A stretch of 45,989 nucleotides of DNA from Deltaproteobacteria bacterium. Lineage in GTDB: Bacteria; Desulfobacterota; UBA8473. A model generated the notes under the pieces. That model saw nothing but the letters and a program-made list of their open reading frames with translations. It ran no database searches and was not told the origin of the DNA. Each line of letters starts with the position of its first letter. The stretch's first letter is position 1. Below, piece by piece: positions 65 to 12,373 of the stretch. Location: NCBI GenBank assembly GCA_030643245.1, contig DAOWME010000001.1:1-45989 (forward strand). Direction: 5' to 3'. A program made the translations under genes and the position numbers.

Positions 65-295
65 TTGATAGATGGAAGATATATGCTATTAACTACGGTG
101 TATCCGGGGCAAGAAGTTACGCTTGTTGATATAAATGGAGGAAGGGGGATAAGGGCGAGACTTGCCAGTATGGGTTTGATACCCGGAGTAAAGCTCAGTG
201 TGTTGCGCACCGGGCCAGGCCCGGTAATGGTCGCGGTGAGAAATACCAGGCTCGCCCTCGGCCATGGGATGGCCCATAAGATTATAGTGAAGTAA
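65..295 (+). CDS. feoA: FeoA-family (SH3-like) ferrous iron transport accessory protein
   Basis: 76-aa ORF with an FeoA-like pattern (GQEVTLVDINGG..RLASMGLIPGVKLSV..GPVMVAV). GGAGG lies 4 nt upstream of the TTG start; ATG at 83 is an alternative start. Confidence 0.7.
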   Translation: MIDGRYMLLTTVYPGQEVTLVDINGGRGIRARLASMGLIPGVKLSVLRTGPGPVMVAVRNTRLALGHGMAHKIIVK

Positions 296-339
296 AAATT
301 TTTGAGCTAAAAGTTAGATTGGCCTAATATTTCCCACAG

Positions 340-564
340 ATGAAAGGAAATGAAGAGATAATCAAGATGATCAATCAAAAACTTAGCGAAATCCGGTGCA
401 GGAAGTGTAACCGACTTTTAATGAAGGGCGATGTGCTGCAGATAGAGATCAAATGTCCTAAATGCGGGTATATGCAGAAGCTGCGAGCAGATGGGGTCTT
501 GGGGGAAAAAATCCGAGAACTGAGAGAAGGAAAATATCTAGTTTTGCCGGTATCTGACGGTTGA
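340..564 (+). CDS. Com-family (Mu Com-like) zinc-ribbon protein
   Basis: 74-aa ORF with CxxC-N17-CxxC (RCRKCNRLLMKGDVLQIEIKCPKCG), as in Mu Com-type translational regulators. Confidence 0.5.
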   Translation: MKGNEEIIKMINQKLSEIRCRKCNRLLMKGDVLQIEIKCPKCGYMQKLRADGVLGEKIRELREGKYLVLPVSDG

Positions 565-571
565 ATAAACA

Positions 572-626
572 GGGCATAGGGCGAAAGGCTTAAGACTAGA
601 ACGGGAGAATCTAACCCTTATGCCTC
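572..626. repeat. Imperfect hairpin of the GGCATAGGG..AAGG / CCTT..CCCTATGCC repeat family
   Basis: gggcatagggcgaaagg ... aacccttatgcctc arms. Related hairpins occur at 10207-10291 and 43368-43408. Confidence 0.4.
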
Positions 627-876
627 TCAGGCAAATACAAGAACCCTCCGAGGGTCAGAGAAGAAAAGAGGCTTGCGAAGCCCGGCCTATGGAAGAATAA
701 TCGACTTGGCTTTTTTATTCTTATAAAGGGGAAGAGGTGAAAGGTTATATTATTTTCCCCGTGATGCGCAGTTTGCTAAGTTACAAAAGATTTAGAAGAC
801 AAAAATGGTCTGACGAAAAAGGTGAAAGAAGAATAGCTTTAATATAACCACTAAAATAGTAGGAAAGGAGTATGGA

Positions 877-2145
877 ATGACGACAATCAAGAGAAGTTTT
901 GTTATATTTGCAGTCACCCTCAGCCTGAGCATGTTAGCTGCGACACAAGTGGCCATGAGCCAGGAAATCTCCAACTACGAGCTGATGAAGGAAGTAACGA
1001 GATTGAAAGTAAAGACCGATCAGCTTGAAGCTCAGATCAAAGGGGAGATGCCGGGAGAATCAGGGGCAGGGGAAAAAGAGCATTATCACAGCGTCAAAAG
1101 CCTGGCTGATAGAGTCCGCAGGATTGAGGGTCAAGTGAAAGAGGGTGTGCTGGGAAACTGGGCCGACAGAATAGAACTGAGCGGGCTCATAGAGATCGAA
1201 GTCGGTTATGAGGACCTCGATTTTGACGATTCCGCCCAGTCTGATAAGGAATCGAGCGACATCGTCCTTGCAACGGTTGAGTTGGGCGTTGATGTTGATA
1301 TTGCGAAGCATGTCAAGGGCCACGTTCTCTTTCTATGGGAAGAAGACGACACAGAACCGGTTGACGTGGATGAGGGGATTATCACCATAGATGGAGAGGA
1401 TGTGGCGCCCGTTTACCTCAATGCAGGGAAAATGTATGTGCCTTTCGGAAATTTTGAAAGCCACTTCATCAGCGACCCGTTGACACTGGAGCTGGGAGAG
1501 ACAAGGGAGAGTGCTCTTAATCTCGGATTTGCGAATGAAATGTTTGACGTCTGTGTCGGCGCTTTCAACGGCGACATCGATGAGACAGGAGAAGACAACC
1601 ATGTGGAGACCTATTTTGTCGGCGCAACATTCACCCTTCCGGAAGGGACAGCGTCAGACCTTGGGTTGACGGCCGGAGCGTCCTACATATCCAATATCGC
1701 CGACAGTGACAGCCTCCAGGACGAGGATGGTGTTGGCCAGAAGGATGAGTCTGGCGCTAAGATCCAAGAGATCAAAGACTACGTGGGTGGAGCGAGTCTT
1801 TTTGTGAGTCTTTCTTTAATGGATCAATTCTTCTTGGAGGCCGAATATCTTGGGGCCACCGAGAGTTTTGAGGCCGGTGAATTAGGATTTGACGAGGGCG
1901 AGTCATGCAGGCCGAGTGCCTGGAATATTGAGCTTGCCTATGCAGCCGCCGAGAACCTTGAGTTTGGGGTCAAGTATGAGGGCAGTGATGATTGCGGGGA
2001 TTTTCTTCCGGAAAGCCAGTATGGCGCTATCGTAAGCTACAGTCTTTTTGAGAACACCTCACTTGCGCTTGAATATCTCTATGGGGAATTCGAGAATGAC
2101 GATGAGAGGAACTTGATCACCTGCCAGCTCGGCATAGAATTCTGA
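877..2145 (+). CDS. Outer-membrane beta-barrel porin-like protein (LbtU-like siderophore/iron porin family suspected)
   Basis: 422 aa with a signal peptide (LSMLAATQVAMSQE) and an N-terminal coiled coil. Alternating acidic/aromatic beta-strand pattern and a C-terminal ...QLGIEF (terminal Phe typical of OMPs). AAAGGAG SD 6 nt upstream. Confidence 0.55.
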   Translation: MTTIKRSFVIFAVTLSLSMLAATQVAMSQEISNYELMKEVTRLKVKTDQLEAQIKGEMPGESGAGEKEHYHSVKSLADRVRRIEGQVKEGVLGNWADRIELSGLIEIEVGYEDLDFDDSAQSDKESSDIVLATVELGVDVDIAKHVKGHVLFLWEEDDTEPVDVDEGIITIDGEDVAPVYLNAGKMYVPFGNFESHFISDPLTLELGETRESALNLGFANEMFDVCVGAFNGDIDETGEDNHVETYFVGATFTLPEGTASDLGLTAGASYISNIADSDSLQDEDGVGQKDESGAKIQEIKDYVGGASLFVSLSLMDQFFLEAEYLGATESFEAGELGFDEGESCRPSAWNIELAYAAAENLEFGVKYEGSDDCGDFLPESQYGAIVSYSLFENTSLALEYLYGEFENDDERNLITCQLGIEF

Positions 2146-2153
2146 TCATTAAG

Positions 2154-2339
2154 ATGATTGCCGTTGTTTTATTGCCGGCTGCCGGGTATCTCTTTCACAA
2201 ATACTATTTGGCTTTCACAAAGAAGGAGACAGGGTGTGGCTGCGTATACTGTAGCACCAAGACCGGAGAGGGGAACTGCTCCTGCCTGTCACTTACTGTG
2301 AACAATGGAATGGAACAAATACCAGATGACAAAGAATGA
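2154..2339 (+). CDS. FeoB-associated Cys-rich small membrane protein (putative)
   Basis: 61 aa with one N-terminal TM helix followed by a Cys cluster (GCGCVYCS..GNCSC). This architecture matches the family named that way. No clear SD. Confidence 0.45.
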   Translation: MIAVVLLPAAGYLFHKYYLAFTKKETGCGCVYCSTKTGEGNCSCLSLTVNNGMEQIPDDKE

Positions 2340-2401
2340 ATGCAGGATGTGGTGGGCGCAGCCCACCCCACATACTTCGTCCTAAGGAGTGAGGTTATAT
2401 A

Positions 2402-2683
2402 ATGCCGAATCGTGATGGAACAGGGCCACCTGGAAAAGGAAAGGGCATGGTGGGACAGGGCATGGGTGTGTTAGAGGACCAGTGTCCTGAATGTGGGGAG
2501 GAAAGGCTTCATAATCTAGACTCCGGCCGGAGGGCAAAAGAGGTCGGCTGGGGAGTCGGAGCAGGCCCCGGGGGATTCTGCGTATGCCTAAAGTGCAACA
2601 AAGAAGTTAAGCATATTACGGGTACGCCGTGCAGTGAAATGAAATGCCCTGATTGCGGCGCGCCGATGGCACGGAAACTTTAA
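2402..2683 (+). CDS. DUF5320-like protein with two CxxC zinc-ribbon pairs
   Basis: N-terminus MPNRDGTGPPGKGKGMVGQGMG resembles the DUF5320 signature (MPxxDGTGPxGxGP). CPEC...CLKC and CPDC motifs. GGAG upstream. Confidence 0.5.
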   Translation: MPNRDGTGPPGKGKGMVGQGMGVLEDQCPECGEERLHNLDSGRRAKEVGWGVGAGPGGFCVCLKCNKEVKHITGTPCSEMKCPDCGAPMARKL

Positions 2684-2813
2684 GAAGAAAAGAGACCTTA
2701 TAGACTTCGGGAAAACCGGAAAGTTAGCTGGTTCAACCCTAAATAGCCCAGTATAAAGTTGTTCGCTGTGGCTAAATTAACTAATAAAATCAGCATGTTG
2801 TCTCAAAATAAAC

Positions 2814-2840
2814 TTGACAAAATATCGGGGGGGGTATACG
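2814..2840 (+). promoter_or_regulatory. Sigma70-like promoter candidate with a G8 tract in the spacer
   Basis: TTGACA (2814-2819), a 15-nt spacer containing gggggggg (2827-2834), then TATACG (2835-2840). Lies immediately upstream of the ATPase operon. Confidence 0.3.
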
Positions 2841-2841
2841 A

Positions 2842-3141
2842 ATGAGATGCAACGATTACCAAAGAATCTGTGGAGGGGATATTGGGAATGAGAAAGATTT
2901 CCCTTCGGGGTTTTTTCTTCCGCTGGCCTTTGTTCCTCGGGAGACAAAAAAGGTTAAAGTTGTTCGCCTTCTTGGTTCATCTGACACAGATGATTGGCCC
3001 TTGGGCCTTGAGGTGTCTATCGGGGAGGTGTTTCGCTTGTTACGACAGGCTGCAACCGGAGGATGGACCGTAGAGACAGGTGGTGCGAATTTTACTATTA
3101 GCGCCGAGTTGGCCAGGAAGTTGTTGGTGCAAACACTATGA
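2842..3141 (+). CDS. FeoA-like small protein (start uncertain)
   Basis: The C-terminal ~75 aa (VKVVRLLGSSD..LGLEVSIGEVFRLL....FTISAELARKLLV) follow the FeoA pattern. The stop overlaps the ATG of the next gene (ATGA). The annotated ATG sits right after the putative -10, so the true start may be downstream or non-canonical. Confidence 0.45.
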   Translation: MRCNDYQRICGGDIGNEKDFPSGFFLPLAFVPRETKKVKVVRLLGSSDTDDWPLGLEVSIGEVFRLLRQAATGGWTVETGGANFTISAELARKLLVQTL

Positions 3142-5390
3142 AAAAGGACATCCAAAAATCTATCAAAGTCCTCCATAGCATTCCAGGCAGGATGCGGCTG
3201 AAGGTGAAATCCGTCCGATCTTCCCATGAACGGGCTTATATCATTGAACACTTTGTATCGAAGCATTCTCCGGTTATAAAGGTGGAAGCACGCCCAATTA
3301 CCGGTAGCGTGATACTTTTTTATGATCCCGAGAGAGCGGACCCTGATGCTATAATCGACCTTCTCCGGAAGGCATTAACCGTAAGCATGGATACCCCCCT
3401 TTCACTTTCGTCATCAAGTAACCCGGCATGTGGCCTCGATTGCAAAGTTTGCCATCCAGTAACTTCATCCATAGAGAATAAATCTCTCTTGGGCAGACTG
3501 GTAGAGGTGCTGGCGCTCACCGCCTTTATGGTTTATTCTTTTATAAGAAACTTTATTTTCAAATCCCCCTTTTCCCAGGGGCCGTTCACCATTATGGCCG
3601 GTTTAGCTGTTGTGGCAGCCATCCCCCTCTTTCGCCATGCACTGGATGATTTGCAACGAGGGAAGAGCATGAGCCTGTTCCCATTTCTAGCCTCCACCTG
3701 TGTCCTCGCTCTCTTTCTGGGCGAGACAATGACAGCGCTGGAAGTGATCTGGATTTTGCGGGTGGGGATGCTCTTAGAGGATTATGTAGCTGAGCGGTCC
3801 CGTAAGGCCATAAGCGAAATCCTTCAGGTGGCCGCAAAGGACACTTATGTTCTAATAGATGGGATAGAGGTTGAGATACCCGTGGACGAGGTCAAGGAGG
3901 GAGATATATTGGCCGTCCATACCGGAGAAAAAATCCCGGTGGATGGTGTTGTGCTGAGAGGGGAGGCCATGGTGGATGAGGCCCATATCACAGGACGGGT
4001 CGAGCCTCAGATACGCAAGGCCAAAGATCGGGCCTTTGCAGGGACCATCGTCCAGGAGGGAGTAATATTCATCCGGGCGGAAAAGGTGGGAGATGATACC
4101 TATCTTTGCCGTATCCTTCATCTTGTTGAGGATTCGCTGGCCAATCGCGCGCCTGTAGAGAAACAGGCAGACATCCTGGCGGCCCGGCTTTTTCGACTCG
4201 GGGTCTTTGCTACGTTAGCTGTTCTCCTGTTAACAGCGGACCCTCTACGGGCCTTCACAGTTATGCTCGTCATGGCCTGCCCGTGCGCTACTGTGCTTGC
4301 CGCTTCAACTGCCGTGACCGCGGCTTTAGCCAATGCCGCGCGTAACCATATACTCGTGAAGGGAGGTCTTCACCTGGAGAGGGTGGGGAAGGCAGACTGT
4401 TTCTGCTTTGATAAGACAGGGACTATTACCGCAGAGATTCCCCAAGTGATAGAGGTAATCCCACGGGCGCCAAAACAGACCGAAGCCCATGTACTCGCGT
4501 TGGCTGCCGTAGCTGAGATGCACAATGAGCACCCTATGGCCAAGGCCGTGGTCAATGCCTCCAGCAGCTATGGTATTACACCGGAGCCCCACGCGGTCTG
4601 TGAATTTGTATTGGGACGGGGGGTTAAGGCCATGATGGATGGAAATATGATCCTTGTGGGGAACACCAGGTTCCTGGAGGAGGAAGGTGTCAGCACCGCA
4701 TATTATAAAGGCAAGGCTGATAAAAATATATCTGCCGGGCATACGGTCCTCTTTGTGGCCAGGAACAAGAAGCTTCAGGGGATGATAGTTGTGGCCAACA
4801 CAATAAGGCCCAATGCCAGGGCCGTGCTGGACTGGCTTAGAAAGGATGGCGTATCCGCCCTCTATCTTGGGACCGGGGATACGGAATCCGTGGCAAAGTT
4901 CATTTCCGATACCCTCGGTTTTGACGGCTATCGATCCGACCTGATGCCAGAAGATAAGTCCGAATATATTGAAAGGCTTGAGGATGACGGTATGTCTGTG
5001 GTTATGATCGGCGATGGCGTGAATGACGCATTGGCCCTCTCAAAGGCCGGCGTGGGCATTGCCATGGGAGCTGGTGGCGCTGAAGTGGCGATTGAGGCGT
5101 CGGACATTGCCCTGGTGGACAGCGAACTGGAACGAATTGTGAACCTGCGACAGCTCAGCCACAAGACGCTTGGGGTTATCGAAGAGAACTACTACCTCGC
5201 AGTCTCTACCAATATCATCGGTGTGTTAATGGGGGCGCTGGGATGGCTGACCCCTATAATGGCAGGGGGGCTTCATATTGTTCATACCCTTGGAATACTT
5301 ATGAACTCAAGTCGTCTCGTTGTATGGGAAGCCCCGGGATTAAAGGAGAAGGAATTAAGCGGAGTTAATCTCAATGATAAAGACGGATAA
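3138..5390 (+). CDS. Heavy-metal P1B-type ATPase A with an N-terminal IPGRxRLK (HMA_2-like) domain; actuator TGE replaced by TGR
   Basis: 750 aa with DKTGT, GDGVND, NEHP (HP motif) and TM CPC (MACPCAT). N-terminus has HSIPGRMRLKV. The A-domain reads ITGRVEP instead of TGE(S)xP (R codon 3996-3998). Confidence 0.9.
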   Translation: MKKDIQKSIKVLHSIPGRMRLKVKSVRSSHERAYIIEHFVSKHSPVIKVEARPITGSVILFYDPERADPDAIIDLLRKALTVSMDTPLSLSSSSNPACGLDCKVCHPVTSSIENKSLLGRLVEVLALTAFMVYSFIRNFIFKSPFSQGPFTIMAGLAVVAAIPLFRHALDDLQRGKSMSLFPFLASTCVLALFLGETMTALEVIWILRVGMLLEDYVAERSRKAISEILQVAAKDTYVLIDGIEVEIPVDEVKEGDILAVHTGEKIPVDGVVLRGEAMVDEAHITGRVEPQIRKAKDRAFAGTIVQEGVIFIRAEKVGDDTYLCRILHLVEDSLANRAPVEKQADILAARLFRLGVFATLAVLLLTADPLRAFTVMLVMACPCATVLAASTAVTAALANAARNHILVKGGLHLERVGKADCFCFDKTGTITAEIPQVIEVIPRAPKQTEAHVLALAAVAEMHNEHPMAKAVVNASSSYGITPEPHAVCEFVLGRGVKAMMDGNMILVGNTRFLEEEGVSTAYYKGKADKNISAGHTVLFVARNKKLQGMIVVANTIRPNARAVLDWLRKDGVSALYLGTGDTESVAKFISDTLGFDGYRSDLMPEDKSEYIERLEDDGMSVVMIGDGVNDALALSKAGVGIAMGAGGAEVAIEASDIALVDSELERIVNLRQLSHKTLGVIEENYYLAVSTNIIGVLMGALGWLTPIMAGGLHIVHTLGILMNSSRLVVWEAPGLKEKELSGVNLNDKDG

Positions 5391-5733
5391 AATAGATGAA
5401 GATAAATTGATCGAAGGTCTCCTTAGAATAGCGTCAAATATAAAGATTGCGCATCATATCCCCGGAAGGATCAGGCTAAAGGCCTCTCTTTCAGGACTTA
5501 ATAGTGTTCAGGAAATAGATATTAAAAAGATAGTGGGTTCTATCCCCGGAATTCTCAGTGTGCGAATCAATCCGTTTGGCATGTCGGCAATCATCGAATA
5601 CGATCAGGAGCAACTTCCATGTGACCTATGGGTGAGTCTTGGCGAGGTGGGTAAGAGGCCTGAAATTGCTGCCCGGGTTGTGGAGCGTCTGCAGACATTG
5701 TTTTCCGATAGAAGAAGATATGAACAGTTTTAA
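5374..5733 (+). CDS. Stand-alone IPGRxRLK (HMA_2-like) domain protein
   Basis: 119 aa. HHIPGRIRLKASL ... SIPGILSVRINPFGMSAIIEY matches the N-terminal domains of both flanking ATPases. Overlaps both neighbours (17 nt and 14 nt). Confidence 0.7.
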   Translation: MIKTDKIDEDKLIEGLLRIASNIKIAHHIPGRIRLKASLSGLNSVQEIDIKKIVGSIPGILSVRINPFGMSAIIEYDQEQLPCDLWVSLGEVGKRPEIAARVVERLQTLFSDRRRYEQF

Positions 5734-7969
5734 AATAGCCCACAGCCTTCCCTGGCGGACCAGATTGGTGGTGCCCTCTTTAGTTGGGGAAAGGGACGCT
5801 GCCCGGAAAGTAGCTGATGCCCTCTCTGAGATCCCCAGGATTTCCATGGCGGATGTACGTCCCGGAACCGGTTCCATTATCATTACCCATGAAGAAGGCT
5901 CCCTGAACCTTGAAGCTGTCAGGTCTGTGCTGGAAAGGGAAATACCTGTATACGAAAGGGGGAATACCGCTTTTGAATATAGCTGCTGCAGGGCGCCCCT
6001 GTCCCGGGCAGAAAACAGGCAGACACACGTGCCCGGATGGGTCCTTGCAATAACCGGCATCTACCTGGCTATCATGTGGTGTGGTCGCCTCATTTTTGGA
6101 AGATCGATGTCCCCTCGCGTCTTTTCTCTCCGAAGGATATTCGGTGTTCCTGCTTTAGTGGCCGTAGGGCTGAGTCTTCCCATCTTGAGAGATGGTCTTA
6201 GAGATTTGATGGAAAGATGGCGCCCCAATATGGATCTCTTAATCGTAAGTGCTTCATATCTCTCCATTTTAATGGGGGAGCCTGTTACAGCCATGGTAGT
6301 GCTCTGGCTGGTAAATCTATCCGAATGGTTGGAGGAAAAGACCCAGGAGAGAACCAGGAAAGCCATCAGGTCCATGCTTCGCCAGGAAGTGCGGGAAGCC
6401 TGGATAGTCAGAGACGGAGTGGAGCTTGAAATTAAAGTCTCAGAGCTGTCCGTGGGGGATATACTCAGCCTTAGATTCGGCAGCGCAGTCCCCGCGGATG
6501 GCACGGTTCAAGATGGCGAAGCCCTGGTGGATGAGTCCGCCATGACCGGCGAAGCCCTGCCGGTTTTCAAGACCTCAGGCGATCAAGTCCTTGCCGGAAC
6601 CACGGTGGAAATGGGGCATATCTTTTTACATGTCGACTCCGTAGGTGAAGAAACCCGCCTGGCAGCTATCATCCGTCTCATTGAAGAGGGAGAGGCCTCA
6701 AAGGCCCCGATCCAGCTTTCAGCCGAACGTTTCAGTGACGCAGTGGTTCCTGTCTCATTATTTCTTGCCCTTGCTGTCTTCTTTTTCACAAGGAACCTTC
6801 AACGGGCCATTGCAATGCTGATTATCGCGTGTCCTTGCGGCATTGGTCTTTCAACCCCAACGGCGCTGACTGCAGCCCTTGGTAATGCGGCCCGCAGGGG
6901 TGTTCTCATCAAAGGGGGACGAAACCTGGAGACCGCAGGCAAGGTAAATACCCTCGTCTTTGATAAGACCGGCACACTGACATCAGGCACCCCCAGGGTC
7001 TCACGAGTGATCACCCTGGACGATGATTACGAACCAATCCAAATCCTTCAACTGGCAGCCAGTTCCCAGATGCACTGGAAGCATCCCATGACCATTGCCG
7101 TTCTTGAGAAGGTCGGGGAAATAGAGATCGAAATCCCGCCCCATGAAGAGACTGAATTTATTATAGGACATGGGGTCCGGGCAAAGATCAACGGGAATGA
7201 AATTCTCGTGGGGAGCCACCACTTCATGGAGGATTATGAGGTGGACCATGAGGTCGGTCATGATGAGGAAAAGAGGATACTTGAAAAAGGAGAAAGTGTG
7301 CTCTTTGTGGCCTCCAACGGAAAGCTCATCGGACTTATAGGCGTGGAGGACCGGGTGAAGGATAATACAGCAATTGCTTTGCTGAGGCTGAAGGACCTCG
7401 GTGTCCGACATATTGTTATGCTCACCGGAGATCATAAGCGGAACGCAATGGCCATTGCCAGAGACCTGCCCATTGATGAGATCCAGTGGTCCCAGTCTCC
7501 CGAAGATAAGGCTGCGTGGATTGCACAATGGAAGGAACGCAACCCCGGCGACCTTGTAGCCATGGTTGGAGACGGAATAAATGATACCCCTGCCTTTTCC
7601 CGTGCAGATCTCAGTCTTGCCATGGGAGACACGGGTGCGGATGTGGCCATGGAACACGCGGCTATTGTGCTGCGCCGGGGTGATCTGGAGCTCGTAGCCG
7701 AGGCAATAGATCTCGGGCAGGCGACCCTTTCAACGATTTCTCAGAATTACAGTCTCTCCGTTGGCCTGAACCTGGCAGGCGTAGTACTGGCGGCTTTTGG
7801 TTGGCTTTCTCCTCTTGCAGGGGCATTTTTTCATAACCTTATCACCGTGGCAGTAGTAAGCAATTCAACAAAACTTCTCTTTTACAGTCCCGAATCTTCT
7901 CCCTCGGCCGGCGAAAATTCACAGGCCGTGGAAGAAAGTGAAGTGAGCATGGGATCAACCAAACCTTAA
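5720..7969 (+). CDS. Heavy-metal P1B-type ATPase B with an N-terminal HMA_2-like domain
   Basis: 750 aa from the internal ATG at 5720 (MNSFKIAHSLPWRTRLVV). Motifs: TGEALP, DKTGT, GDGIND, WKHP, TM CPC (IACPCGIGLSTP). The longer track ORF from 5639 is probably an upstream extension. Confidence 0.9.
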   Translation: MNSFKIAHSLPWRTRLVVPSLVGERDAARKVADALSEIPRISMADVRPGTGSIIITHEEGSLNLEAVRSVLEREIPVYERGNTAFEYSCCRAPLSRAENRQTHVPGWVLAITGIYLAIMWCGRLIFGRSMSPRVFSLRRIFGVPALVAVGLSLPILRDGLRDLMERWRPNMDLLIVSASYLSILMGEPVTAMVVLWLVNLSEWLEEKTQERTRKAIRSMLRQEVREAWIVRDGVELEIKVSELSVGDILSLRFGSAVPADGTVQDGEALVDESAMTGEALPVFKTSGDQVLAGTTVEMGHIFLHVDSVGEETRLAAIIRLIEEGEASKAPIQLSAERFSDAVVPVSLFLALAVFFFTRNLQRAIAMLIIACPCGIGLSTPTALTAALGNAARRGVLIKGGRNLETAGKVNTLVFDKTGTLTSGTPRVSRVITLDDDYEPIQILQLAASSQMHWKHPMTIAVLEKVGEIEIEIPPHEETEFIIGHGVRAKINGNEILVGSHHFMEDYEVDHEVGHDEEKRILEKGESVLFVASNGKLIGLIGVEDRVKDNTAIALLRLKDLGVRHIVMLTGDHKRNAMAIARDLPIDEIQWSQSPEDKAAWIAQWKERNPGDLVAMVGDGINDTPAFSRADLSLAMGDTGADVAMEHAAIVLRRGDLELVAEAIDLGQATLSTISQNYSLSVGLNLAGVVLAAFGWLSPLAGAFFHNLITVAVVSNSTKLLFYSPESSPSAGENSQAVEESEVSMGSTKP

Positions 7970-7979
7970 GGAGGTAAAT

Positions 7980-8954
7980 ATGGAAAAAAACAAGAATATT
8001 CGAGAGAAAACGTTGGGCCCGGGTGGAGCCCCAATGGCAGGACAAATGGGGGTGGTTGCCGGACCCGGCTCCGGGTCTGTGATGGAAGGCCATGGTGTGA
8101 GGCCTACACAGGTTGAAACTCCGGCGGCAGGCAACTGTGACCAGATGCATTCGGGAGCTGATCCCTGGCAGGGTAGCCAGCCCCAGGGACAGAATCCGGG
8201 CAACGGACAGACCGGGTTTTCAGGCGCGAATCCTGGTCAGCCGGGTCCCACTGGAATGCCCACAGGGCAAACCGGCTTTCAACCCGCAGGGAACGACCCC
8301 CAGGGACAGATTGGTAATATGGGAGGAGCATCTCCTCCCGGTTCTTTCCAGACCGGACCATCCCCTGGCCAGTTTCCAGGCATGGGTCAGGCAGACGCTC
8401 CCGGCATGAACCCCGGTCAGATGTCATTTTATCCGGGAGCTCATCCGGGGACACCCCCCCAGGCAAATGGGGGCATGCCGGCAGGAAGCGCTCATTCCAT
8501 GGGCCCATATCCAGGTTATCCGGGATCTGGTCAGATGGGGGTTCCCGGTGTGCATCCGGGACAGACCGGCTACCAGCCAGGTTGGGATCCTGGCGCCGGT
8601 GTTCAAGGACCGGGCGGTATGCCGGGGATGGAAACAAATCCTCACATGGGTTCATCTATGGAAGGACATGGCTCCAGTCACATGGGGGCGGACGCCCACC
8701 ATATTTATCATGACGAAAACCGTTTCGGCCAGGTTGCCGACATGGTGGGACGTTTCCTCAAGGGTGAGGCAAACACCGATGATATTGTCAACGGCCTTTT
8801 TAGTCTCAACTTTCGGGATGATCAGTTCTGGAAAGGGGCCATAGCCGGTGTTATTGTGGCCATGCTTCTCAGCAGCGACATGGTGAAACAGGGCCTGGCC
8901 AAGAGTTTTGGCGCTGTTTTCCAGAAGGGTAAGGATGAGAAAGAAGGCGCTTAA
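7980..8954 (+). CDS. Gly/Pro/Gln/Met-rich low-complexity protein with a C-terminal YtxH-like amphipathic/TM anchor
   Basis: 324 aa with a strong AAGGAGG SD. About 230 aa of PG/QG/MG repeats with His/Met patches (MEGHG twice). The C-terminus NFRDDQFWKGAIAGVIVAMLL.. is paralogous to ORF 9573-9929. Confidence 0.7.
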   Translation: MEKNKNIREKTLGPGGAPMAGQMGVVAGPGSGSVMEGHGVRPTQVETPAAGNCDQMHSGADPWQGSQPQGQNPGNGQTGFSGANPGQPGPTGMPTGQTGFQPAGNDPQGQIGNMGGASPPGSFQTGPSPGQFPGMGQADAPGMNPGQMSFYPGAHPGTPPQANGGMPAGSAHSMGPYPGYPGSGQMGVPGVHPGQTGYQPGWDPGAGVQGPGGMPGMETNPHMGSSMEGHGSSHMGADAHHIYHDENRFGQVADMVGRFLKGEANTDDIVNGLFSLNFRDDQFWKGAIAGVIVAMLLSSDMVKQGLAKSFGAVFQKGKDEKEGA

Positions 8955-8994
8955 TGACCGGGTCAACCGGCTATAAGCAGATAATAGGTAACCA

Positions 8995-9113
8995 TTCACC
9001 TCACTGCAAAGTCGCAAAGAGCGCAAAGGAATACATGAAGTGACAAAAGAAGAAGATAATCTTTCAAAGGAAATTTCTTTAAAACTTTGCGCTCTTTGCG
9101 CCTTTGCGGTGAA
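8995..9113. repeat. Long inverted repeat (~27-bp arms, ~55-nt loop) inside the operon
   Basis: cactgcaaagtcgcaaagagcgcaaag (about 9002-9028) versus ctttgcgctctttgcgcctttgcggtg (9085-9111), with 2 mismatches. Lies between the stop at 8954 and the start at 9142. Confidence 0.75.
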
Positions 9114-9141
9114 CTATTAGGATAATAGAAAGGAGTCAGAT

Positions 9142-9537
9142 ATGTCAAATCACCCTCACCCTCATAATTTACAAACAACCCCGGCGAGTTATCATGTTTA
9201 CAAATCTTCCACGAGACCTTATTCCGGCACGACGCTCTTGAACGCAGGGATCTTTGGAACCATTGTGGGAGGAACAGCCGCCCTCGGAATGAATCTACAC
9301 AAGGTCCGCGACAACGAGATGACTGCAAAAGAGGCCGTTATCGACAGCCTTGCTAAAGGCGCGGGTGCAGGCGTGGCTACAGCGGCTGCCACTGCTGTTG
9401 CATCCTCAGCAGGTGGCGGTGGCCTTCTCTCTCTGGCCTTTATGGTGGCAACTGCCACAGGAGTCGGTTATGTTCTGCATTCAGTGGGGAAATCGGTTTC
9501 TGAAAAGGTAGTCAGCACTTCGGAGAAATCATCATAG
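9142..9537 (+). CDS. MamC (Mms13/Mam12)-like two-TM membrane protein
   Basis: 131 aa with an AAGGAG SD. GIFGTIVGGTAALGMNLHKVRDNEMTAKEAVIDSLAKGAGAGVATAAATAVASSAGGGGLLSL aligns by eye with MamC [63 protein letters not shown] (recalled from memory). Confidence 0.6.
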   Translation: MSNHPHPHNLQTTPASYHVYKSSTRPYSGTTLLNAGIFGTIVGGTAALGMNLHKVRDNEMTAKEAVIDSLAKGAGAGVATAAATAVASSAGGGGLLSLAFMVATATGVGYVLHSVGKSVSEKVVSTSEKSS

Positions 9538-9572
9538 GGAAGTTTCAGTCTTTTAAAGAAAGGAGCAAAGAA

Positions 9573-9929
9573 ATGATTAAACACCATACACTTAATCCTT
9601 CTCCCGATATGTATCCCATGAACCAGCCCGGTCAAATGCTCAATGATCCCCGTTCGCATGACGCCAATCTACAGAGAACAGATTACACACAGATGAGCAC
9701 ACCTGCTGATACTTCCATCTTAGGCGTTAATTTCCATGACCAGCAGTTCTGGAAAGGGGCATTGCTGGGAGCGGCAGTTACACTCATTGTTACTAATGAA
9801 ACCGTGCAAAAGGGAATCATAAAGACCGTGGCGAAGCTCTATGGTTCAATGCAGAGCGGTGTGCAGGAGATAAAGGAGAAGTTTGAGGATGTTCAGGCGG
9901 AGCTGAAGCATAACGCCAAAGAGAAATAA
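9573..9929 (+). CDS. YtxH-like small membrane-associated protein, paralogue of the C-terminus of ORF 7980-8954
   Basis: 118 aa with an AAAGGAG SD. VNFHDQQFWKGALLGAAVTLIV..VQKGI matches LNFRDDQFWKGAIAGVIVAMLL..VKQGL. The N-terminus is rich in P/Q/M/N. Confidence 0.65.
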   Translation: MIKHHTLNPSPDMYPMNQPGQMLNDPRSHDANLQRTDYTQMSTPADTSILGVNFHDQQFWKGALLGAAVTLIVTNETVQKGIIKTVAKLYGSMQSGVQEIKEKFEDVQAELKHNAKEK

Positions 9930-9971
9930 CAAAAGAAGAGTTGAGGTTGCGACAAAGGTAGGGAAGATAAA

Positions 9972-10160
9972 GTGAATAAAAACACGATTAAGAGTGTGAC
10001 AAAGGCAGGAATGGTAGTCTCCTTGGCCGGTCTTGTGTTGACCGCTCTTGGAAAGGGCCGGCGATCCAAATTGCAACACACATGGGCCGGTATTTCACTT
10101 ATCGGCTTTTCCGTCTGGCATTACAACACATACCGGAGTCCCGGCCGGAGGCAGACATAA
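9972..10160 (+). CDS. Small two-TM membrane protein (hypothetical)
   Basis: 62 aa with a GTG start. Two hydrophobic helices (GMVVSLAGLVLTAL, WAGISLIGFSVW) separated by a basic loop KGRRSK. Weak SD. Confidence 0.4.
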   Translation: MNKNTIKSVTKAGMVVSLAGLVLTALGKGRRSKLQHTWAGISLIGFSVWHYNTYRSPGRRQT

Positions 10161-10206
10161 AACAACAATTTGAATGTATATGAAATCCCATGTGTAAAAG
10201 GTAAAA

Positions 10207-10291
10207 GGTATAGGGTGTAAGGATCAAGGATCAACATGCAAGCTGTATAGTATGGTCAATTCCTTAAGCCGTGTACCTTGAACCCTATGCC
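10207..10291. repeat. Hairpin of the GGCATAGGG..AAGG repeat family
   Basis: ggtatagggtgtaagg (10207-10222) pairs with ccttgaaccctatgcc (10276-10291) at 13/16, with a ~53-nt loop. Confidence 0.45.
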
Positions 10292-10330
10292 TCGTTTAGC
10301 TTTAATATACTATCTATGGGAGGTAATACA

Positions 10331-10507
10331 ATGGTACATTTACCTTTATTCTTCAGTCCCATCGGATGGATTGTGCTTGGCGCAGCAGGTTACCTATTAT
10401 ATCAGTCCGGTAAAAAAGCAGGGGGAAAAGAAAGAAACGAAAATATCCTGTCCGGTCCTTCAAAAGAAATACAGGAAAGAGAACCGTCCGAGCGAAAGGA
10501 GGTCTAA
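10331..10507 (+). CDS. Small single-TM glycine-zipper protein
   Basis: 58 aa from the ATG at 10331 (GGGAGG 7 nt upstream). Sequence MVHLPLFFSPIGWIVLGAAGYLLYQSGKK followed by a charged tail. Confidence 0.55.
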   Translation: MVHLPLFFSPIGWIVLGAAGYLLYQSGKKAGGKERNENILSGPSKEIQEREPSERKEV

Positions 10508-10508
10508 A

Positions 10509-10781
10509 ATGTCAAATCCGGCTTTTTGGGTTGGGATAAGAACCCCCTTAGGCCTCCTGGCCATTGGAGGTTTAGGGTATATTCTTTACAAGATCGGTGG
10601 TAAAAAAAAGAACAGGTCAACGGAAGAGGATGAAGAAAGCCTTTCGGACAAGGCTGTAAAAGGCGCCATTAAGACTGTCTGTAAGGCCAAACTAGGGGTG
10701 GAAAAAGCCCTGGAAGAAAAAAAGAAACGGTTTTCTGAGATGTGGTCTGAGGCCAAAGAGGATATGCGGGAAAAGGGATAA
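10509..10781 (+). CDS. Small single-TM glycine-zipper protein, paralogue of 10331-10507
   Basis: 90 aa from the ATG at 10509 (AAGGAGG upstream). LGLLAIGGLGYILYKIGGKKK followed by a Lys/Glu-rich helical tail. Shares a G-x-x-GY(L/I)LY motif with the upstream gene. Confidence 0.6.
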   Translation: MSNPAFWVGIRTPLGLLAIGGLGYILYKIGGKKKNRSTEEDEESLSDKAVKGAIKTVCKAKLGVEKALEEKKKRFSEMWSEAKEDMREKG

Positions 10782-11268: not shown

Positions 11269-11652
11269 TTACTCCAGAATGTCTCTTATTACCTTCAACT
11301 CGTTCTTTATGTCATCCAACAGTTCCCTATATCCCTCTCCAGAAAGAGTAAATTTTGCCTCTCTATCCTCCTGGGAATTGGACTTCCTGAGCTTCTTCTT
11401 GGCCCCAGCTATGGTAAATTTCTCATTGTAAAGCAGGTTTTTTATCTCTAATATTGATTCCAGGTCTTTTCGTATGTAAAGTCTCTGCCTGGACTTGGTG
11501 CGAGAAGGCTTGACCAGGTTAAATTCGGACTCCCAATACCTCAAGACGTATGGCTCTACACCAACAATCTCGCTTACTTCCCCTATCTTGAAATATAGTT
11601 TATCAGGTATGCCTAAACCCCTTTTGTCTGCCCCTTGCTCTTTATCTTTCAT
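11269..11652 (-). CDS. MerR-family transcriptional regulator
   Basis: From the internal ATG at 11652 (MKDKEQG..). [34 protein letters not shown] is a MerR HTH. It occupies the usual position after ihfA in this conserved block. Confidence 0.8.
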
Positions 11653-11829
11653 TTTATTTCTTTGAACTGTAAAAGTCAATGTCAATAAGACGGCGGCAGC
11701 AATTCTAATTAGTTTCCATCCAGTAATGTCACTTTTTCGCAACCTCCTGCGTGAGCCTGCGGGTTTGTTTGTGCAGCGTACGCGTCTTAACAGAACAGGC
11801 AACGAAAAAATATGTCGTTAATGAAGCGG

Positions 11830-12016
11830 TTAGGGTCTGTCATGGAATAAGTGTTGCATATGGGCGCTCAGATTTAGGTCAGATTTGTACGATCCGAAAA
11901 TGCAATACCGGAGGAATAGTTGAACCTATTTCGAGGATTTTGTGTTTGAGGATCGTGCAAAGATGGCCTGAAGATGAGATGCACAGATGTGATACTTATT
12001 CCATGACAGACCCTAA
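11830..12016 (+). repeat. Intergenic hairpin repeat, copy 2 (variant termini)
   Basis: The core matches the family. The terminal arms ttagggtctgtcatggaataagt / acttattccatgacagaccctaa are a perfect 23-bp inverted repeat that differs in sequence from other copies. Confidence 0.9.
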
Positions 12017-12097
12017 GCCACAATCAGAATTACCCACCAGAATCTACAGTGATCTTACCCACTCCCCATTAATGCAACGTACTATGATATGAGGATC

Positions 12098-12373
12098 TCA
12101 GTTATTTAACATTCTCTTTAATACCTGACTTGGTCTAAATGTAAGCACTCTCCTGGCGGAGATTTCAATTTCATCCCCGGTTTGCGGGTTCCTGCCTCTT
12201 CGAGGGTCCTTATCTCTAAGGGTGAAATTTCCAAAGCCAGAGATCTTCACATTCTCGCCGGTTTCTAATTTCTCCTTTATAATTTCAAAGACCGTCTCCA
12301 CAATCTTTGCTGATTCCTTCTTGGAGATCCCAACGTTCTCATAAACGTTTTCAATGATATCTGCTTTTGTCAT
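12098..12373 (-). CDS. ihfA: Integration host factor subunit alpha
   Basis: 91 aa. [10 protein letters not shown]...GFGNF.LRDK..R.GRNP.TGDEI.I.ARRV.TFRPS is the HU/IHF signature, and the gene sits directly after pheT. Confidence 0.85.

Follow-up and report, generated by a model that had tools for sequence, protein, structure and literature searches.

Positions 1 to 45,989 of contig DAOWME010000001.1 (assembly GCA_030643245.1), referred to here as a whole as the window, belong to a Deltaproteobacteria bacterium of the Desulfobacterota (UBA8473). Bases 65-10781 carry what we read as a gene cluster of the ferrosome type (fez-like) from an anaerobe, and the cluster is assumed to form ferrosomes. 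Within this cluster lie the genes for two P1B-type ATPases, A and B, and for a small protein, S, between them. In P-type ATPases the aspartyl phosphate is hydrolysed by a water molecule that a glutamate of the actuator domain holds in position. This residue, part of the motif TGE or TGES, is treated as universal, and a 2023 review places the phosphatase-motif glutamate "in all pumps" (PMC10654040). ATPase A has an arginine at this position. In this study, we examine A, B and S, the FezH family to which A is assigned, and the role that such an ATPase may play beside a pump of the usual kind.

Two ATPases and a small HMA_2 protein

The pumps, the small protein and their key motifs are as follows.

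3138-5390, plus strand: ATPase A, assigned as a FezH orthologue, an HMA_2-headed P1B-type ATPase of 750 amino acids (open reading frame (ORF) list; TIGR01525; tree)
3150-3386, plus strand: HMA_2 (CoBaHMA, "R-rich") domain of A, HSIPGRMRLK (Pfam PF19991, residues 5-83, 41.6 bits)
3429-3455, plus strand: Cys/His patch CGLDCKVCH of A, in the linker ahead of the first membrane helix
3990-3998, plus strand: T-G-R of A, TGE elsewhere in P-type ATPases (ACA GGA CGG; R287 is CGG at 3996-3998)
4278-4286, plus strand: CPC of A in membrane helix 4, C381-P382-C383 (invariant in FezH alignment A1)
4410-4424, plus strand: DKTGT phosphorylation motif of A, with D425 (invariant in FezH alignment A1)
5374-5733, plus strand: S, small HMA_2 protein of 119 amino acids, HHIPGRIRLK (Pfam PF19991, 35.1 bits)
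5720-7969, plus strand: ATPase B, P1B ATPase with an HMA_2 head, CPC/HNLIT type, 749 amino acids, TGE kept (TIGR01525, 539 bits; tree)
6545-6553, plus strand: canonical T-G-E of B, within SAMTGEALP at 6536-6562

The actuator loop of A reads ITGRVEP, and in a HMMER alignment R287 falls exactly on the glutamate of SGEP in A. fulgidus CopA (3j08). The arginine in place of the glutamate, as given in the preliminary description of this stretch, is confirmed; the description was also right that B keeps TGEALP, that the remaining core motifs are intact in both pumps (DKTGT, HP, TGD, GDGxND and CPC can be read in each), that the IPGRxRLK domain occurs three times, and that a CGLDCKVCH patch lies in the linker of A. 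The equal length of 750 residues that it gave for both pumps did not hold: counted from its start at ATG 5720, B has 749 residues (several of our comparisons used 5717-7969, which is one codon extra), and the near-match is a coincidence. On the P1B model TIGR01525 of NCBIfam (cut-off 346), A scores 463.6 bits and B 539. The DKTGT, TGD, GDGxND, HP and CPx signatures of P1B ATPases are present in A but TGE is lacking, whereas B has both; A is judged a P1B family member by descent, minus the TGE catalytic feature. Compared from end to end, the two proteins share 34% identity, with MACPCATV in helix 4, HIVHT in helix 6 and an N-terminal HSIPGRMRLKV in A, and IACPCGIG, HNLIT and HSLPWRTRLVV at the corresponding places in B.

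All three proteins exceed the gathering score of 30 bits for Pfam PF19991 (HMA_2), A with 41.6, S with 35.1 and B with 32.1, and in each a histidine precedes strand 1 and basic residues lie within it (H-SIPGRMRLK, HHIPGRIRLK and H-SLPWRTRL). We identify IPGRxRLK as the "R-rich" motif of Grant et al. (for example HRLPGRIRLRY in RPA2333), equivalent to Pfam HMA_2; because of its histidine and basic residues, this motif corresponds to the CoBaHMA domain as defined elsewhere (PMC8890360). The head of B has a peculiarity of its own: in its sub-clade (window 5720-5770, L241, L242 and Desti_4193; L-numbers are our labels for compared loci) a tryptophan replaces the usual glycine before RxR (PWRTR, SWRSR, DWRTR), and the remaining B-type pumps have tyrosine or phenylalanine there. 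The public gene call for B (P0121) has 734 residues and begins 15 residues downstream of ATG 5720, clipping strand 1 of the HMA_2 domain, which is probably why its stored Pfam list is without PF19991.

Grant et al. (bioRxiv 10.1101/2020.01.10.902569) defined the fez cluster together with its FezB and FezH ATPases, its R-rich motif and its GxxxG proteins. In that work, FezB is a P1B-6 ATPase marked by D[Y/F]SCA and HNxxT, and FezH is the "second uncharacterised P1B-ATPase" of larger fez clusters (group 1-2), with Dde_0489, Desti_4191 and Desulfoglaeba Ga0097685_112182 among the listed examples (bioRxiv 10.1101/2020.01.10.902569). The last of these falls in the FezH colour group and is given there with the motifs ACPCATV / HIVHT / SRIPGRLRLRVP (bioRxiv 10.1101/2020.01.10.902569), and A is 68-69% identical to this Desulfoglaeba alkanexedens protein (L007_A in our set). 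ATPase A has the features of FezH, namely [AST]CPC[AS]T in helix 4, HxxH[TS] in helix 6 and the R-rich motif at its N-terminus. In a tree of 129 sequences, the 52 FezH form one clade with a Shimodaira-Hasegawa-like approximate likelihood ratio test (SH-aLRT) support of 100. ATPase A branches within this clade, beside the Desulfoglaeba sequence; the 42 FezB and the 14 B-type pumps likewise each form one clade with the same support. Since A shares with the FezH family the R-rich motif, ACPCATV, HIVHT and the cluster position, and no feature sets it apart, A is classed as an orthologue and new member of FezH.

In an AlphaFold2 model of A (predicted local distance difference test score (pLDDT) 79.9), the HMA_2 fold and eight transmembrane helices are seen, and the Cys-rich linker is disordered; residues 85-113 of the linker, which hold the Cys/His patch, have a pLDDT below 50. 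A CxnCxnC patch of this kind is present in 28 of 52 genomic and 68 of 120 database FezH, and in none of 42 FezB or 15 B-type pumps, so it is enriched in FezH, not universal.

D. magneticus, S. putrefaciens and R. palustris require the P1B-6 ATPase FezB to form ferrosomes. ATPase B resembles FezB in having an HMA_2/R-rich head, HNxxT in helix 6, TGE, and a cluster with GxxxG proteins and FeoA, but differs in having IACPCGIG, not D[Y/F]SCA, and in sitting in a separate clade; we take B to stand in for FezB in this cluster. Only one entry in the table of Grant et al. matches B, namely Desti_4193 of Desulfomonile tiedjei DCB-1, which is given as ACPCGVS / HNLIT / HTLDWRTRIKVP and is an unclassified singleton in their tree (bioRxiv 10.1101/2020.01.10.902569). 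D. tiedjei thus has the same two types as the window, Desti_4191 (FezH type) and Desti_4193 (B type), two locus tags apart; Desti_4193 shares the unusual HxxxWRTR head of B, and the gene between the two would be a homologue of S. FezH, FezB and the B type, together with the mycobacterial CtpC group, make up a loosely resolved superclade of HMA_2-headed pumps. CtpC of Mycobacterium tuberculosis, a CoBaHMA/HMA_2-headed P1B ATPase, has CPC in helix 4 as well, but its group differs by ACPCAVG / HNASS in the table of Grant et al. and forms a clade apart from FezH and the B type. The tree includes three mycobacterial sequences; at the glutamate position, a CtpC-like pump from Scalindua (L255) reads ITGESNL. 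Several homologues of A and B bear the Joint Genome Institute (JGI) label "P-type ATPase C". The low identity of A and B, their separate, well-supported clades and their differing membrane metal-site residues agree with the preliminary view that the two pumps are not redundant copies.

The small protein S is probably soluble, because it has no hydrophobic stretch, and is 44% identical to the gene product at the same position in Desulfoglaeba. Its gene overlaps that of A by 17 nucleotides and that of B by 14, which would fit one operon with possible translational coupling.

The actuator glutamate across the FezH family

Whether the arginine is shared by orthologues of A had been set beforehand as a test of its significance, and it is. 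The best 120 database homologues of A (48-97% identity) all have (T/N/S)G(R/K), and (T/S)GE is found in 117 of 120 homologues of B. A DNA pattern for CPCATVLA gave 80 loci in species-representative genomes, 74 of them with a FezH ORF spanning the motif; alignment-based extraction gave 41 TGR, 26 NGR, 3 SGR, 4 TGN and no TGE. All 32 neighbouring pumps scored in these genomes (22 FezB and 10 of the B type) have (T/S)GE. When pooled, 164 distinct FezH sequences comprise 159 with arginine, 4 with asparagine, 1 with lysine and none with glutamate. A profile was also run against 1.84 billion cluster representatives at 50% identity, drawn from about 15 billion proteins, and led to the same picture: the FezH membrane signature marks about 35 clusters, in which 29 have R, one each has Q, N, H or C, and none has E, while 99 of 105 matches outside FezH have E. 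That an ordinary pump carries the arginine through a mutation in this strain or through an error of sequencing, a possibility to which we would give next to no chance and which has nothing but the single codon in its favour, is ruled out by these counts, since every FezH examined lacks the glutamate.

At the arginine position all six arginine codons are found, which implies purifying selection on the amino acid as such. Among the labels of the sampled FezH genomes are Desulfobacterota, Campylobacterota, Deferribacterales, Thermodesulfovibrionales and Planctomycetota, and because FezH forms one clade, the loss of the glutamate looks like one old event.

In FezH alignment A1, R287 is invariant together with D425-K-T-G-T429, G580-D581, K607 and G625-D-G-V-N-D630. 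The same is true of the nucleotide site (E460, H465, G493 and G495) and of the membrane site (C381-P-C383, N684, H713, H716 and T717). Judged by these residues, the kinase side and the ion site of FezH are fully kept, and the phosphatase residue alone is changed. Decay towards a pseudogene is ruled out by the invariance of the kinase-side motifs. The loss of a residue regarded as universal might also be taken to mean that FezH is a non-catalytic pseudo-ATPase, a membrane scaffold that neither binds ATP nor becomes phosphorylated. We hold this to be very improbable: a pure scaffold would have no need of DKTGT, TGD, GDGVND, K607, E460, H465, G493 and G495, all invariant, and the arginine itself is under purifying selection.

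Six longer proteins of 1600-1700 residues (P0268, P0276, P0286, P0304, P0334 and P0335) match the FezH profile in three to four stretches, and their first module has no recognisable TGE.

Neither the type of cluster nor its two ATPases nor the R-rich domain is new. The loss of the glutamate in the whole FezH family appears to be undescribed in the literature searched, and so does a form of the cluster with a CPC/HNLIT pump in place of FezB. In that literature, which took in the work of Grant et al. as a preprint but not as published in Nature, nor the dedicated CoBaHMA paper, we found no description of a FezH without the glutamate; FezH is named in the Grant preprint alone, and the preprint text is silent on the actuator motif. 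A glutamate treated as universal is thus replaced by arginine in a widespread family whose phosphorylation machinery is whole, and FezH amounts to a natural experiment on a P-type ATPase without a built-in phosphatase. The genes are at hand in cultured strains, namely Desulfomonile tiedjei DCB-1, Desulfovibrio alaskensis G20 and Desulfoglaeba alkanexedens.

Pairing with a TGE pump and the role of FezH

The neighbours of FezH were examined at 52 loci, made up of 20-kb regions round 48 genomic FezH, the window, and L007-L009. A TGE-bearing pump, FezB and/or the B type, lies within about 10 kb of FezH at 46 of these loci. FezB is in the region at 42 loci and a B-type pump at 16, with both present, and hence three ATPases, at 12. 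The B type occurs without FezB at 4 loci, which are the window, L241, L242 and the Scalindua locus L255 with its CtpC-like pump, and neither type is found at the remaining 6. FezH is therefore an accessory ATPase that nearly always occurs with a TGE-bearing pump, while the partner type varies and the pairing is not obligatory. The proposal that A is paired with an active pump stands in this general form, as a matter of gene neighbourhood; its generality is limited by the six solo loci, and the usual partner is FezB. At two of the six, a P-type ATPase outside P1B lies 3-5 kb from FezH: a pump of 1016 amino acids with LTGESMP at L214 (8863-11913) and one of 862 amino acids with LTGETFP at L251 (13470-16058).

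A small HMA_2 gene lies directly downstream of fezH at about 32 of the 52 loci and anywhere in the region at 38, and was not found at L241 or L242, which are the nearest relatives of the A-B pair of the window. S is best assigned to FezH rather than seen as a link from A to B, because it is the usual neighbour of fezH whatever follows and is absent at L241 and L242. Of the earlier suggestion that A and B are translationally coupled through the small protein, the overlaps can stand as a sign of possible coupling, but the role of S as coupler cannot. A related proposal joins A with B, or FezH with FezB, in one obligate heteromeric pump, bridged by S through the three HMA_2 domains. The gene overlaps, which suggest joint production, the co-location at 46 loci and the HMA_2 module common to all three proteins speak for such a complex. 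We nevertheless consider it quite unlikely, given the loci where FezH is alone, the change of partner between FezB, the B type and both, and the loci where S is missing. P-type ATPases are, moreover, normally single catalytic chains.

On balance we favour, by a modest preference, the reading that the locus is a ferrosome-type cluster in which FezH acts as a slow-cycling or switch-like partner of a TGE-bearing pump. According to this reading, the vesicle would be loaded with Fe2+ by B, and elsewhere by FezB, as the cycling pump that carries most of the transport. FezH would bind metal and be phosphorylated by ATP, but the normal actuator-catalysed steps would not be run, so that it would dwell in a phosphorylated, metal-engaged state with very slow turnover. 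Its role would then be that of a slow or gated second transporter, or of a metal- and ATP-dependent switch of the organelle, and not that of a redundant pump, while the three HMA_2 domains may serve as a common targeting or interaction module. For ferrosome biology, this would give FezH a concrete property and suggests that the larger fez clusters combine one cycling pump with one slow or switch-like ATPase.

We take FezH to be most likely slow or switch-like because the same substitution in SERCA, E183R, abolishes transport and traps the phosphoenzyme. In the mutant there is no Ca uptake, E1P accumulates, and the E1P-to-E2P step runs at less than 10% of wild type (Anthonisen, Clausen and Andersen, abstract 52, PMC2268108); nor is E2P formed from inorganic phosphate, whereas in E183A, Q, S and H it is E2P that accumulates (PMC2268108). 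The SERCA1a TGES mutants E183R and E183A/Q are thus altered at the same position as FezH, E183R to the same residue, and undergo phosphorylation without going through the whole cycle. They are, however, engineered loss-of-function proteins, whereas FezH is a natural clade of several phyla in which the arginine is selected and its effect possibly compensated by a glutamate at +2. ATP7A and ATP7B with TGE changed to AAA are reportedly further engineered mutants altered at the same motif. The term "dephosphorylation-impaired", which the preliminary description applied to A, is perhaps too narrow, since SERCA E183R is blocked at the E1P-to-E2P step and not in E2P hydrolysis alone.

Several observations weigh against this reading. 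The six solo loci indicate that the role of FezH can be performed without such a partner, and no FezB with DYSCA was found in this genome, which is 85% complete and yielded only A, B and one CopA-like pump. The AlphaFold2 model of A is E1-like, its nearest structure being the E1 form of CopA (7r0g), and it does not inform on a contact between R287 and D425. There is also a shift two residues on in the actuator loop, where the 164 FezH have glutamate in 123 cases, glutamine in 12, aspartate in 9 and neither acid nor amide in 20; their FezB and B-type partners have valine or leucine at this place.

This last shift lends itself to a different explanation, in which FezH is fully active and its dephosphorylation loop has been rewired. 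The carboxylate would have moved two residues on, from TGE-S-V-P to TGR-S-E-P, the arginine would help to bind phosphate, turnover would be normal, and the pair would move two different substrates. Apart from the acid or amide at +2, where the other pumps are hydrophobic, the strong conservation of the membrane metal site and of the entire actuator domain is what would be expected of a working transporter. We rate this explanation as unlikely, if a serious contender. The 20 FezH without acid or amide at +2 make up 12% of the family, and FezH of Planctomycetota and Victivallales lack any carboxylate in the loop: TGNGLH, TGNGIL and TGNAIP, the asparagine loops of L217, L232, L233 and L221, contain no acidic residue. 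SERCA, in addition, poorly tolerates changes around Glu183, including S184D, S184R and E183D (PMC2268108).

The preferred reading of a slow or switch-like partner can be carried further, to the claim that FezH is the first natural clade of P-type ATPases without the actuator glutamate and works as a switch, not a pump. We put this forward tentatively and regard it as doubtful in so strong a form. Metal binding would lead to autophosphorylation, and the arginine would hold a long-lived phosphorylated state. Such a state might serve to control an organelle of the ferrosome type: it might, for instance, gate the release of iron, set the time at which vesicles form when iron returns, or regulate the neighbouring cycling pump via the shared HMA_2 modules.

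The surrounding gene cluster

The other genes of the cluster are the following.

65-295, plus strand: FeoA-domain protein, the first gene of the cluster (Pfam PF04023, E 1e-18)
340-564, plus strand: Com-type zinc-ribbon protein (Pfam PF10122, E 2.4e-12)
877-2145, plus strand: porin-like outer-membrane protein (weak Pfam matches, Porin_4 below and Porin_O_P just above the cut-off)
2842-3141, plus strand: ORF of 99 amino acids (no Pfam match; ATGA overlap, its stop lying 4 nucleotides into A)
7980-8954, plus strand: GxxxG-anchored protein (GAIAG; motif read from the sequence, BLAST family in 39 of 52 FezH loci)
9142-9537, plus strand: MamC-like small membrane protein (55% identical to L007 (Desulfoglaeba) 11882-12268)
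9573-9929, plus strand: second GxxxG-anchored paralogue (FWKGALLGA; GALLG; same BLAST family as 7980-8954)
10278-10781, plus strand: small protein of a family found in 8 FezH loci, probably the last gene of the cluster (start uncertain)

The accessory set of fez clusters, consisting of GxxxG membrane proteins, an R-rich protein and a FeoA-domain protein, is complete in the window, and the accessory BLAST families of the window recur in loci that do carry FezB. We call the cluster ferrosome-type or fez-like rather than a proven fez cluster because its pump is of the B type only, in place of the FezB by which fez clusters are recognised. FeoA-domain proteins are found in 35 of the 52 FezH loci, the MamC-like family in 26, and homologues of the porin-like protein in 4; the Desulfoglaeba counterpart of the MamC-like protein (L007 11882-12268) has a match to Pfam PF26373 (MamC). 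Genes further upstream, such as feoB, may have been cut off by the start of the contig at base 1.

Between the porin gene and the ATPases, two small Cys-rich ORFs at window 2154-2683 have sub-threshold matches only, to a FeoB-associated Cys-rich protein (E 0.0038) and to DUF5320 (E 0.007). The C-terminal half of the 99-residue ORF at 2842-3141 resembles a FeoA fold by eye only. A scan for promoters and terminators gave counts no higher than chance, and a search for E. coli-type Fur boxes gave no match. Just beyond the end of the cluster lies a divergent MerR-family regulator (window 11269-11802, minus strand), which is followed on the minus strand by the housekeeping genes pheST and thrS.

On long contigs, homologues of A are found in a series that runs from FeoA and FeoB through a DUF4198 protein to the A-type ATPase and the small HMA_2 protein, and then on to small membrane proteins, of which one has a Pfam MamC match, to a second ATPase, whose helix 4 bears DYSCA, and to a FeoA-domain protein. 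We identify this series as the fez cluster of Grant et al. Across L007-L009 and the 48 further loci, the recurrent order is fezH, small HMA_2 gene, GxxxG gene, MamC-like gene, GxxxG gene, fezB and FeoA-domain gene. In the Planctomycetota loci L217, L232 and L233 and the Victivallales locus L221, the order is small HMA_2, GxxxG, MamC-like, FezB, FeoA and FezH.

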